A stretch of DNA of 63,831 nt, the filler included, from Octopus bimaculoides (Eukaryota): NCBI RefSeq assembly GCF_001194135.2. It is 4 parts of 4 records of this genome, joined end to end, with 100 filler letters (N's around TTAATTAATTAA, not from the genome) between each part and the next. Parts side by side here need not be neighbours in the genome. Positions count along the whole stretch, not along the records: positions 1 to 30,907 come from NC_068988.1; positions 31,008 to 53,272 come from NC_069003.1; positions 53,373 to 62,186 come from NC_068989.1; 1 more part is not named here. One strand, 5' to 3'. Below the pieces are notes generated by a model. The model saw only the letters and a list, made by a program, of their open reading frames with translations, was not told the origin of the DNA and searched no databases. Position numbers and translations under genes: made by a program. Below are positions 26,756 to 55,424 of this stretch, piece after piece; position 1 is the stretch's first letter, and each line of letters begins with the position of its first letter.

Positions 26756-27117
26756 GTTTGCTTTAGAAGCGTTGGGATGTATTATCACAACGCTTCTAAA
26801 GCAAACTTTGTTTACTTCCATCGTAAGTTGAATTTAATGATAGCGTCTTATAAAGCTAGATTTATAAATCCTAAAATTGCAGAACAATTCGTTACTAGGC
26901 AGTTTAGCATAAAGGTAAAGCACTTGACGCGTAATCACAGGGATGTGAATTCGAGTCTCATAGCTGGCCGGTAACGAATTTTTCTGCAATATATGGATAG
27001 TTTATCCTGTTCATTCTATTGTATTAGCATTATCATGAGTTCGAGAATAAATTATGCCGGTATCTTTCAATACATCTCAACGCTTCTAAAGCAAAACTTT
27101 GTTTATTTTCATCATAA
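26756..27117 (+). mobile_element. tRNA-cassette element, copy A: 290-bp unit with terminal direct repeats and a 28-bp inverted tail
   Basis: CAACGCTTCTAAAGCAAA at 26788 and 27078; whole unit homologous to 55061-55424; right end runs into (TA)n. Confidence 0.85.
26898..26969 (+). tRNA. tRNA-Thr(CGT)-like pseudogene, copy A
   Basis: 72 nt fitting a cloverleaf: TAGCATAAAGGTAAAGC D-arm/A-box, loop CG-CGT-AA, T-loop TTCGAGT, T5 tract ~10 nt downstream. G33 and a weak anticodon stem argue against a translational role. Confidence 0.75.
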
Positions 27118-27174
27118 ATAAATAAATATATATATATATATATATATATATATATATATATATATCAAAACAGG

Positions 27175-27325
27175 GGACCGGAAAAGAATTGGTACATAAT
27201 TTATCGACCATGAAAAGATGAAAGGGAAAGTCGACCTCGGCGGAATTTGAACTCAGAATGTAGCGACAGACGAAATACTGGTAAGCATTTCGCCCGGCGT
27301 GCTAACGTTTCTGCCAGCCCGCCGC
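27175..27325 (-). mobile_element. tRNA-derived SINE (core family)
   Basis: Reverse complement GCGGCGGGCTGGCAGAAACGTTAGCACGCCGGGCGAAATGC...GTTCAAATTCCGCCGAGGTCGAC. Confidence 0.9.
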
Positions 27326-28079
27326 ATTTATAATAGTAATAATAATAATAATAATAATAATAAATGTGTGTGTGTATATCTCTTTATGTATCTGTCTATT
27401 TATCTATTACACATGCACACGCCACACACGAGCGCACATCTTTTGCCTATCAAGGATTATATTGTTACATTGCTCAGTGTGGACCTAACATCTTTTTAAA
27501 ACGTTGGTGGGGGGGGGGGGGTAACTAGGAGAGATTTGACTGCTATTTCTATATGGTCAGGTGTGTGCGTAAGAGTAACTTTTCTTTTTTTTTTTTACAT
27601 TGGCACGCTTGAGATGTTGATATTGCTGTTGTTATGAAGACAGCGAGCTGGCTGAATCGCTAGNNNNNNNNNNNNNNNNNNNNNNNNNNNNNNNNNNNNN
27701 NNNNNNNNNNNNNNNNNNNNNNNNNNNNNNNNNNNNNNNNNNNNNNNNNNNNNNNNNNNNNNNNNNNNNNNNNNNNNNNNNNNNNNNNNNNNNNNNNNNN
27801 NNNNNNNNNNNNNNNNNNNNNNNNNNNNNNNNNNNNNNNNNNNNNNNNNNNNNNNNNNNNNNNNNNNNNNNNNNNNNNNNNNNNNNNNNNNNNNNNNNNN
27901 NNNNNNNNNNNNNNNNNNNNNNNNNNNNNNNNNNNNNNNNNNNNNNNNNNNNNNNNNNNNNNNNNNNNNNNNNNNNNNNNNNNNNNNNNNNNNNNNNNNN
28001 NNNNNNNNNNNNNNNNNNNNNNNNNNNNNNNNNNNNNNNNNNNNNNNNNNNNNNNNNNNNNNNNNNNNNNNNNNNNNNN

Positions 28080-28650
28080 NNAAATGCTTAACGTCATTTC
28101 TTCCGACTTATGTCCTGAGTTCAAATGCCACCGATGTCCTTTCATCCTTTCGGGTCGATGGTCGATGAAATAAGTACCAGTTGAGCACTGGGGACCATGT
28201 AAACGACTTATACTCTGCTCCGAAATTGCTGGCCTTGTGCCAAAATTTGAAATCGATATTGTTGTGTTATTCAGGCGGCGACTTGACAGAATTCTTACCA
28301 CAACCCGACAAAATATTCAACTGCATATCTTCTGATTTTACGTTCTGAGTTCAAATTCCGCCGAGGTCGATTTTATCTTTCATTCGTTCAGGCTTCCTAA
28401 ATAATTACCAGTTGAGCACTGGAGTCGATGTAACCAACTTGCCCGCTCCTTCTAAATTTCAGCCCTTGTGTCAAGAGTAGAAAAGATTGTTATATTACTA
28501 TAATTAAGGCGACAGCTGGCAGAACCATTAGCACGATGGACAAATTGCTTAGCGGTATTTCGTCTGTCTTTATGTTCTGAGTTCAAATTCCACCGAGGTC
28601 GAACTTTGCCTTTTATCCTTTCGGGGTCGATAAAGCAAGTACTAGTTGAA
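28080..28650 (+). mobile_element. Three tandem SINE copies (core family)
   Basis: Repeated GAGTTCAAAT.CC.CCGA.GTC / CCTTTCATCCTTTCGGG blocks at ~28110, ~28350 and ~28580. Confidence 0.85.
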
Positions 28651-52557: not shown

Positions 52558-53030
52558 CATCATCATCATCATCATCATCACCATCATCATTTAACGTCCG
52601 CTTTCCATGCTAGCATGGGTTGGACGATTTGACTGGGGACTGGTGAACCAGATGGCTACACCAGACTCCAGTATGATCTGGCAGAGTTTCTACAGCTGGA
52701 TGCCCTTCCTAATGCCAACCACTCCGAGAGTGTAGTGGGTGCGTTTTACATGCCACTGGCACGAGGACCAGTCAGGCGGTTCTGGCAATGGCCATGCTCA
52801 AATGGTGTTTTTTACGTGCCGCCTGCACAGGAGCCAGTCCAATGTTTTGTTCACATGCCACTGGCACAAGTGCCAGAAAGGCGAACCTGGAAATGATTGC
52901 GCTCAAATGGTGCTTTTTGCATGCCACCGGCACGGAAGTGAGACCGCTGCTCTGGCAGTGATCCCGCTCAGATGGTGCTGTTAGCGCTCCGCTGGCACAG
53001 GTGCCAGTCATCGAATTTGGTTCAGTTTTG
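52558..53030 (-). mobile_element. RTE 3'-end fragment with (GAT)n tail (others at 51680-51822 and 61605-61890)
   Basis: (CAT)n-TTTAACGTCCGCTTTCCATGCTAGCATGGGTTGGACG... identical in type to the 3' end of the 47.6-kb RTE. Confidence 0.88.
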
Positions 53031-53829
53031 ATCCAAATATATATTCGTGGCACTCCATTGGTTATGACAACAAGGGTTCCAGTTGATCTGATCAATGGAA
53101 CAGCCTGCTTGTGAAATTAATGTGCAAGTGGCTGAGCATTCCACAGACACGTGTACCCTTAACGTAGTTCTCGGGGAGATTCAGCGTGACACAGAGTGTG
53201 ACAAGGTTGGCCCACTGAAATACAGGTACAACAGAAACAGGAAGAAAGAGTGAGAGAAAGTTGTGGTGAAAGNNNNNNNNNNNNNNNNNNNNNNNNNNNN
53301 NNNNNNNNNNNNNNNNTTAATTAATTAANNNNNNNNNNNNNNNNNNNNNNNNNNNNNNNNNNNNNNNNNNNNCCACCACCACCACCACCACTACCACCAC
53401 CACCACTACCACCACCACCACCACCGCCACTGTAATAACGACGACGGCGGCGATGACAGAATAGCAACAACAGCAGTAGTGCTGACGATATTATCAACAG
53501 CGGCAGCAACAACAACAACAATAACAACAACAACAACAACAACAATAGCAACAACAACAACATTAACAATAGCAACAACAACATTTCTAGCAACGTCAGT
53601 GATATAACCACAGCGTGAGATGGTAAAGAATCGTTCTTTGACGTGCTAGAAAGAATAGCGAAAACCCACTCAAATCGCACACAAATAATCGTCTTAAAAG
53701 GAAACGGGAAGTGTGTATTGTACACTGAACGCATTGTACATACGAAACGACGGGATGATCACGGCTGGAAATCTTTGATCAAAGGCCTGCTCGATTAGGA
53801 TTGATCTGAAGCTAAACAAGAAAAAAACT

Positions 53830-54062
53830 AGTCATATTCTTTTTAACTCTAGATACAAGGCCCGAAATCTTTGGGAGAAGGGGGCCAAGTCGATTAGATC
53901 GAACCCAGTATGCAACTGGTACTTATTTAATCGACCCCGAAAGGATGAAAGGATGAAAGGATGAAAGGCAAAGTCGACCTTGACGGATTTGAAATCAGAA
54001 CGTAAACAGCCAGAAAAAAATCGACAAGCATTTCGTTCCGACGCTCTACCGATTCTGCCAGC
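53830..54062 (-). mobile_element. tRNA-derived SINE (core family) with triplicated AAAGGATG
   Basis: CGACCCCGAAAGGATGAAAGGATGAAAGGATGAAAGGCAAAGTCGACC. Confidence 0.88.
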
Positions 54063-55060
54063 TCCATTGAACTATAAGAAAAACGGTAATAATTATGGCG
54101 ACGGTATAATCTTTGCAATGAAATGCTAAAGATTGAAGTATTGCATCGGTCATTTACCATTAAACGTTAGTCAGCATGTACCATGCTTTCGCTAAGTGCT
54201 TTATATGCCTGTGTAATCTTTAAATCTTTTAAAATGTTTCAGCTTCGAAGCTGCGGTCCTGCTGGGGCACCACCGTTAGCTAACATAGATTCCGTTTTAT
54301 TCCTCACTCTTACCCAGCGGAACATCCGGAATGTAACAGCTAAAGGAAGAGAGAGCTTCACCGGTACCTAACTAGTTCGCTTTCACAGTTAAGTCGGCCG
54401 TGAAATGATTTAGCTCAATTGCTCAAGGACTTAACGCCCTGTCCGATCTAGTGATTGAACTCACAACTTTATAAACAATATCCCAACACCTTAACCACGG
54501 CGCTACGCACCTTCACTGTTACAGATTAATACTTCGCTAACGAGCGTGTTAAGAACAGTATTGTAGAGAAGTTTGCGAAACTCTTAATTGTTCTATCAAC
54601 AGTCAAAGTCGAAGAATGAAGTGGATTGGTTCTTTGGCATGACAATATGGCACCTTACCTCTCATGAATATGGTCATTCAGGGACAAACCCCTAATTCAG
54701 TGGTTCCCAACCTTTTCACAGTGGTTCCCCAACGCTTTTATTTAAATGAATTTTCCCGACCCCTTTTAATGCATATGCCTGTCCTAATGTATAATTTCGT
54801 TTATTCTTTTATTTCTTTTACTTGTTTCAGTCAGCTGACTGCGGCCATGCTGGAGCACCGCCTTTAGTCAAACAAATCGCCCCCCCCCCCAGGACTTATT
54901 CTTTGTAAGCCTAGTACTTATTCTATCGGTCCCTTTTGCCGAACCTCTAGTTACGGGGACGTAAACATCGGTCGTCAAGCGATGGTGGGGGCTAACACAG
55001 ACACACAAATACATGCATACATATATATATATATATATAAACGTACATACACACACACAT

Positions 55061-55424
55061 ATTCTGTATCTTTCAATACAGCTCAACGCTTCTAAAACAA
55101 ACTTAGTTTACTTTCATCGTAAGTTGAATTTAACGTTAGCATCTTATGAAGCTAAATTTGTAAGTTCTAAAATTGTAGAAGAATTCGTCAGTGGTCAGTT
55201 TAGCTTAATGGTAAAGCACTTGACGCGTAATCACAGTGATGTGAGCCCGGGTCTCATGACTGGCCGGTAACGTATTTTTCTGCAGTGTATGGATAATTTA
55301 TCCTGTTCACGCTATTTTATTAGCATTATCACGCGTTTGAGAATAAAAAAAATTATTTCTGTATCTTTCATTACATCTCAACGCTTCTAAAACAAACTTT
55401 GTTTACATCCATCGTCAGTTGAAT
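55061..55424 (+). mobile_element. tRNA-cassette element, copy B: 295-bp unit with ~68-bp terminal direct repeats
   Basis: TTCTGTATCTTTCA.TACA.CTCAACGCTTCTAAAACAAACTT.GTTTAC..TCATCGT.AGTTGAAT at both ends; sits inside the (TA)/(CA) tract of a SINE. Confidence 0.9.
55194..55265 (+). tRNA. tRNA-Thr(CGT)-like pseudogene, copy B
   Basis: GTCAGTT/GACTGGC acceptor stem, GCTT/AAGC D-stem, loop CG-CGT-AA, GTGAG/CTCAT T-stem (T-loop mutated to CCCGGGT), T5 downstream. Confidence 0.75.

Follow-up and report, generated by a model that had tools for sequence, protein, structure and literature searches.

A dispersed, non-coding repeat unit of about 290 bp, carrying an internal transfer RNA (tRNA)-like cassette, was analysed in a 63,831-nt stretch of the Octopus bimaculoides genome (hereafter, the window; coordinates are positions in the whole window). 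The unit is probably a non-autonomous element mobilised by Penelope-like elements (PLEs). This reading is preferred because the copies share a common 3' end that runs into (TA)n, have variable 5' ends, include overlapping head-to-head inverted copies and, in one case, lie within a 13-bp target duplication. An earlier note on this DNA had left the choice between a Penelope-like insertion and a mobilised satellite unit or circle; the common 3' end, the overlapping inverted copies and the 13-bp duplication favour the former, and the latter, which predicts no common end, is less favoured.

Two copies, A and B, are 84.9% identical over 331 aligned bp (E = 1.6e-104). Their flanks are unrelated, apart from a common short interspersed nuclear element (SINE) about 1 kb from B, and the two are thus confirmed as related copies of a repeat. 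The order of parts in B is R-leader-tRNA-trailer-R, in which R is a direct end repeat of the full 71 bp (55062-55132 and 55357-55427, both on the plus strand) lying between (TA)n tracts. The 5' copy of R, which is like the pseudo-long terminal repeat (pseudo-LTR) of PLEs, has (TA)n/(CA)n just before it, and the 3' copy runs into (AT)16 at 55423-55455. In A, the alignment with B places a 5'-truncated R and the leader at 26784-26897 (plus strand) and a 3' copy of R at 27060-27119 (plus strand), which runs into (AT)n ending at 27165; the direct overlap is just 44 bp (26784-26826 and 27074-27117). The outermost 29 bp of A (26755-26783, minus strand) are an inverted partial copy of R, head-to-head with the direct copy, and map to 55075-55103 of B. 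The periods of 290 bp in A (26784/27074) and 295 bp in B (55062/55357) agree with those reported before. The accompanying description of each copy as one unit plus a repeat of its own end stands for B, and for A it stands for the directly repeated part and fails for the inverted outer segment. By rough hand arithmetic, with the rate as quoted in PMC13282606, A and B split about 23 million years ago.

The third copy, C, at 34442-34668, is diverged and forms a head-to-head inverted duplicate within a 13-bp target duplication. Its direct arm (34529-34668, plus strand) comprises trailer and R (nhmmer E = 6.9e-5; 0 of 1000 shuffles score as high, with either A or B as the reference) and has no tRNA, being 5'-truncated just past it. 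Preceding this arm is an inverted trailer duplicate of 80 nt (34443-34522, minus strand), which matches it at 73 of 80 positions and has its outer end at the start of R. The exact 13-bp repeats that flank C lie at 34429-34441 and 34669-34681 (plus strand), and a comparable match was found in 19 of 3000 random flank pairs.

The surroundings of A and B are themselves rich in repeats. Three abundant SINE-like repeats stand beside them (27187-27330, 54820-55000 and 55458-55620), with 17, 8 and 10 matches of at least 60 bp within the window, respectively, and B is placed in a microsatellite between two of these. A reverse transcriptase (RT)-like fragment lies immediately to the left of A (26369-26704, minus strand), with no continuation elsewhere in the window.

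Evidence for the family at large was drawn from contigs of public sequencing runs aligned to copy B. The stretch or part of it is present in 20 of the 24 listed runs, which span eight studies and four organisms. A 387-bp query from B aligned to 2370, 1628 and 1675 contigs in runs X1, X9 and X15, from three organisms, and a 143-bp query to 638 and 382 contigs in X2 and X14; the contigs of all five alignments break within the repeat. Summed depth, which is no copy number, reached up to 3.5e5 versus 28-70 for single pieces. The repeat is accordingly short, interspersed among unrelated flanks and present in at least 100 copies (1628-2370 contigs per run), and the copies of the family probably number in the hundreds to thousands. 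Scans for exact patterns gave 0 matches in metagenome contigs and 0 in viral contigs, and the chance open frame of the unit, used as a protein query, returned no candidates.

Loose ends of contigs were read in the best 12 of 141 rows for the 143-bp query (X2 and X14, two organisms) and in the best 24 of 829 rows for the 387-bp query (X1, X9 and X15). Among these rows the 5' ends vary between copies and the 3' end is common, in AT-rich or (TA)n sequence. The loose ends in X2 fall behind 55133 in 21 contigs, continuing as (TA)n with an agreement of 0.51, and behind 55122 in 10; those in X14 fall behind 55129 in 8 contigs and behind 55134 in 10. The low agreement past the end of R is as different flanks would give. 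It is also in this zone of R (55122-55134) that A and B end, both running into (AT)n. A second end site is marked by loose ends behind 55348 that continue a few bases into R and then turn to (AT)n (25 contigs in X1, 29 in X9 and 27 in X15), and it is here that the inverted arm of C starts. The inverted arm of A starts at a third site, 55103, which is 30 nt short of the main end at 55133. Contigs that end at the start of the tRNA carry leader-like loose letters.

Among the listed joints between pieces of the unit (15 of 63 for the 387-bp query and three for the 143-bp query), seven connect opposite strands (5 of the 15 and 2 of the 3); four of these are head-to-head, one is probably so and two can be read either way. 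One side of the joint is at 55062-55068 in three of the seven, where B also begins, a hint that this is a preferred 5' boundary. Wherever the arrangement is readable, in three of three cases, the inverted piece overlaps the direct piece: by 20 nt in A, 80 nt in C and at least 64 nt in record 13 of X2. Joints that go back within the unit, as circular RNA would also give, are explained by the end repeat itself.

The 72-nt tRNA-like cassette that was noticed in both copies is present at 26898-26969 in A (25.3 bits) and 55194-55265 in B (27.3 bits), both on the plus strand and neither reaching the Rfam gathering score of 29. Over the whole window, ARAGORN returned 0 tRNA genes and Rfam 0 matches at the gathering threshold. 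A functional tRNA gene was rejected, as no canonical cloverleaf with U33 lies above the detection thresholds. Matches to Rfam microRNA and leader families in A and B are far under the cut-offs and reflect palindromes or (TA)n. The anticodon arm is identical in A and B and includes, as the earlier note had it, G33 and the TCACA strand, within a bulged anticodon stem; the sharing of this non-canonical arm upholds the view that the amplified template was already a pseudo-tRNA. The label Thr(CGT), from the CGT at the anticodon position, fares less well and means little, since the anticodon arm differs in a second subfamily. A T5 tract begins 10 nt past the tRNA in both copies (26979-26983 in A and 55275-55279 in B, plus strand), in keeping with the distance first given. 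Each element has one tRNA only, outside R and 110-132 nt inside the element, and it is this length of common upstream sequence that sustains the claim that the unit is not a standard SINE. An A-box-like stretch is found at 55201 in B; the B box is damaged in this copy and intact in most family contigs (places 55246, 55247 and 55250). The presence of the boxes makes the unit a candidate for transcription by RNA polymerase III (Pol III). The tRNA does not serve in decoding; it is most likely retained for its A and B boxes, which would help the transcription of master copies.

Leader and trailer are predicted to pair as an extension of the acceptor stem by about 22 bp, forming a hairpin that the tRNA caps and that holds the T5 tract inside its stem (26876-26990 in A and 55172-55286 in B, plus strand). 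The folded 119-nt region has a z-score of -6.21 in A and -5.80 in B, with 0 of 200 shuffles equally stable in each case. The fold stability of the tRNA alone is insignificant (z of -1.1 and -1.9), and R alone folds no better than chance. Counted over the first 30 positions outward, 25 and 24 pairs are possible in register, and 9-14 when the strands are slid by 1-2 bases. When the leader was compared with the reversed trailer by an ungapped-style local alignment, the match was significant in A (0 of 500 shuffles) and insignificant in B (366 of 500), since G-U pairs are needed for the stem of B; by the fold test the hairpin is supported in both copies. In the modelled structure, the stem is possible solely in RNA that starts upstream of the tRNA. 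The second subfamily, seen in loose-end consensus rows, has variants in the leader that are matched by complementary variants in the trailer, and eight pairs of its stem compared by eye contain three double-sided changes and one one-sided change. Compensatory changes thus seem to have preserved its stem even as the anticodon arm changed. Folded as a circle, the unit forms no rod (58-65% paired).

These properties can be set against what is described for PLEs. The account in PMC8557442 names as PLE features an arrangement in partial tandems, a 5'-truncated inverted copy placed at the 5' end, a tail that may or may not be present, and (TA)n targets, places the start of PLE transcription in the pseudo-LTR, includes non-autonomous members with head-to-tail copies, and reports a preference for (TA)n in the octopus elements Naiad_Obim and Hydra-1_Obim. 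The octopus unit has a partial tandem that forms a pseudo-LTR, through the 71-bp direct repeat of B and the 44-bp repeat of A. An inverted 5'-truncated copy stands next to the 5' end in A and C (two of the three window copies), in record 13 of X2 and at further joints. A PLE protein, as described in PMC11167929, nicks AT-rich DNA, extends both strands and starts at two internal RNA sites. According to PMC13282606, 190 PLE families occur in Octopus vulgaris, 31 of which were recently active.

In the mechanism that we propose, an autonomous PLE would supply the reverse transcriptase and the GIY-YIG endonuclease that copy the unit. Just as PLE transcription begins within the pseudo-LTR, a long RNA would start in or before an upstream R; it would extend across the leader, the tRNA hairpin and the trailer and reach the following R. 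R would be bound by the PLE protein, which would nick AT-rich or (TA)n DNA, and reverse transcription would start at set points inside R, mostly near 55129-55134, also near 55066-55068 and once at 55103. Full-length copying would yield R-body-R, as in copy B, and priming of both nicked strands would yield inverted partial copies, as in A and C. Copy C could have arisen with one strand primed at the first site and the other at the second, the products being joined head-to-head within the staggered cut, an outcome that two-site, two-strand PLE copying would give directly. Short Pol III RNAs from the tRNA boxes would stop at T5, and the leader-trailer stem would form only in the long template RNA. 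A bolder version, which we regard as possible but doubtful, sees the unit as a counterpart of SINEs that depends on Penelope elements, with a tRNA mimic, borne on a long and conserved stem, in place of the hammerhead ribozyme; the host tRNA machinery would transcribe or process multimeric RNAs into PLE templates, and the fold, not the anticodon, would be selected across octopus subfamilies.

Several observations weigh against a Penelope-like origin. Head-to-head joints taken alone also fit twin priming by long interspersed nuclear elements (LINEs), and (TA)n ends and 13-bp duplications fit LINEs too. No clean target duplication was found around A or B. The tail measures 30 nt in A (55103 versus 55133) and about 60 nt in C and at contig ends, versus 30-40 nt in PLEs. 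No Rfam ribozyme, hammerhead included, was matched in A or B at E<=1, nor was a hammerhead found in the three window copies; two exact hammerhead first half-cores occur in B, on the minus strand only, and are not kept in A. Naiads are likewise described as lacking a hammerhead (PMC8557442). In the search for a partner, nine short motifs of the unit had 0 matches in the supplement of that paper, where a motif could be missed if split across lines or slightly altered. By eye, the Naiad_Obim, Naiad_Ovul and Hydra-1_Obim 3' ends bear no resemblance to R, with the sole exception of a 10-nt trailer match inside the Hydra-1 hammerhead. This comparison covered three octopus PLE ends and one supplement, versus the 190 PLE families of O. 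vulgaris. The two stem variants of the second subfamily come from separate consensus rows, and their linkage on one molecule is presumed. Nor was a pile-up of read starts or ends, or an element-specific transcript, seen in the one RNA run that was sampled.

Expression data comprised 2734 reads from 6% of that run. Five of the reads are at least 99% alike and 2432 less than 90%; 95% continue into unlike sequence, and both directions are equally represented. The reads most likely derive from other copies inside host transcripts, and short Pol III RNAs would probably not be retained in such an RNA library. About 1,600 RNA reads in X21 match only part of the trailer (55297-55344) and have their own T-rich upstream flank; they point to an abundant transcript containing a subfamily copy that is related but diverged.

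The alternative that survives best, although we hold it to be unlikely, is a tandem-dependent, permuted SINE mobilised by a LINE of the Dong-R4 or RTE type. Pol III read-through into the next unit would then serve as template, copying would start at the end of R, and inversions would arise by twin priming or snap-back. The common 3' end with variable 5' ends, the 13-bp duplication around C and the B box intact in most contigs all suit such an element, as do the active Dong-R4 and RTE families of O. vulgaris noted in PMC13282606 and the tandem-dependent Pol III elements described from Schistosoma (PMC6765202). However, two read-throughs of T5 would be needed to copy the leader and both R, no pile of copies starting at the tRNA is seen in the best 24 of 829 rows, and R is unlike the LINE fragments in the window. 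Twin priming, moreover, gives abutting pieces and not the overlaps of 20, 80 and at least 64 nt observed between inverted and direct pieces.

Random cuts of circles would give neither common ends at 55129-55134 and 55066-55068 nor head-to-head duplicates within a target duplication, and it is improbable that the unit is a satellite monomer derived from a tRNA gene and spread as DNA, by circles or rolling-circle copying from arrays, with the 1.2-unit pieces as the products of such cuts. In one organism the summed contig depth is similar, and very high, over the leader and R in few contigs, as homogeneous arrays would give, although contig depth is no copy number; 80 satellite families are reported for O. 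vulgaris in PMC13282606. The direct end repeats of B and the inverted repeats around the tRNA would also be compatible with a Helenus-type terminal-repeat retrotransposon in miniature (TRIM), with a tRNA in its LTR, or with the cargo of a DNA transposon such as a miniature inverted-repeat transposable element (MITE) or Helitron, both of which we consider very unlikely. The single target duplication is 13 bp long, whereas that of animal Helenus is 4 bp. The tRNA lies between the repeats and not within them, the repeats differ in extent between copies, and the inverted repeats are internal, not terminal; in favour of a TRIM, bivalves have Helenus elements, and these can be arranged in tandem arrays (PMC10886601). 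Segmental duplication of the ordinary kind is an alternative named in the earlier note; for a single degenerate tRNA gene duplicated in this way, nothing but the tRNA-like fold speaks, and it is ruled out with near certainty by the A and B flanks, which share only the common SINE about 1 kb from B, and by the contig counts in three organisms.

Other features of the window include an exon of an Apple/PAN-domain gene at 46829-47095 (plus strand), which has 99% identity over 85% of its length with a protein of O. bimaculoides and 80% identity with O. sinensis LOC115223610; the three copies of the repeat may be located within this gene or next to it. Nested long inverted repeats occupy 11-680 (arms 11-149/542-680 at 94% and 198-343/344-489 at 83%), and this fold-back may represent a further head-to-head insertion. 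A degenerate 2.25-kb array at 13715-15965 has a 4-bp, GAAC-like period (564 copies, 74% matches), and a 26-bp minisatellite of at least 50 copies (62287-63831) runs off the window end. Pfam, applied to 117 of 161 filtered frames, identified RT, endonuclease, integrase and PHD pieces and no GIY-YIG domain. Broken pieces of non-LTR retrotransposons, with RT, endonuclease and PHD finger, lie at 37818-38999 and 49015-51153 (minus strand) and are presumably RTE-like. An LTR-retrotransposon integrase fragment (Integrase_H2C2, rve) is found at 8233-8745 (plus strand). The frame at 23043-23372 (minus strand), next to (ATC)n(TCT)n, has just a weak Pfam match to DUF7886; in our reading it looks like that end of a Dong/R4 LINE which encodes the restriction-like endonuclease.

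LINEs have tRNA-derived passengers in the SINEs, and LTR elements have tRNA-bearing ones in the Helenus TRIMs; if the unit is a passenger of PLEs that bears a tRNA, it would fill a third slot. Its 290 bp would then be a minimal natural substrate for the unclear PLE cycle: thousands of short copies would offer a record of start sites, tail, inverted copies and protein binding, and these could be examined in an existing in vitro assay. The unit explains part of the load of pseudo-tRNAs and 'unclassified SINE' entries in octopus annotation; the O. vulgaris library of PMC13282606 (Zenodo, 2026) is described as holding hundreds of 'unclassified SINE' families. Should the partner be a LINE, or the family already be in a repeat library, it would become an ordinary curation item. 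No description of a tRNA-bearing PLE passenger or of this octopus unit was found in open papers, Repbase, Dfam, subscription papers and the PMC13282606 library being outside the search, and repeat libraries or subscription papers may already contain the consensus under another label.

Among known systems, tRNA SINEs, of which OK and OR1 are octopus examples, share with the unit its tRNA-derived A and B boxes, short length, many copies and simple-repeat 3' neighbour. They differ in having the tRNA-derived head at the 5' terminus; in the octopus unit it lies 110-132 nt inside and is followed by T5, and there are end repeats and inverted duplicates, a separation made from SINEs as described (SINEBase; octopus OR2) and not by sequence. 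Helenus TRIMs, as presented in PMC10886601, are likewise non-autonomous, with tRNA-like sequence, direct repeats and molluscan hosts; they have the tRNA-like sequence in both LTRs, and the octopus unit has a single tRNA between its repeats, variable 5' ends and a 13-bp duplication. The metazoan non-LTR retrozymes of PMC7229834 are similar in their AT-rich, non-coding unit of 150-450 bp, in long target duplications when present and in having PLEs proposed as the mobilising partner; where they carry a type I hammerhead, which was not found here, the octopus unit has its tRNA cassette. Non-autonomous PLEs such as MRC1 and other non-autonomous Chlamys elements, in the description of PMC8557442, also lack an open reading frame, form pseudo-LTRs through partial tandems, carry a 5'-truncated inverted copy at the 5' end, target microsatellites and have more than one 3' end site. 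The octopus unit departs from these in its internal pseudo-tRNA within a long stem, its tail of 30 or about 60 nt, the lack of a hammerhead and the lack of a matched autonomous PLE 3' sequence; with no partner sharing R found, it works like a non-autonomous PLE and is a candidate member of that group. By analogy, the nearest Pol III counterparts are the SINE-like hammerhead repeats of Schistosoma as characterized in PMC6765202, which likewise have a Pol III promoter away from the 5' end of the unit that is copied and depend on a tandem context, and from which the octopus unit differs in that no ribozyme was found, in the T5 directly past its tRNA and in its inverted 5' duplicates.

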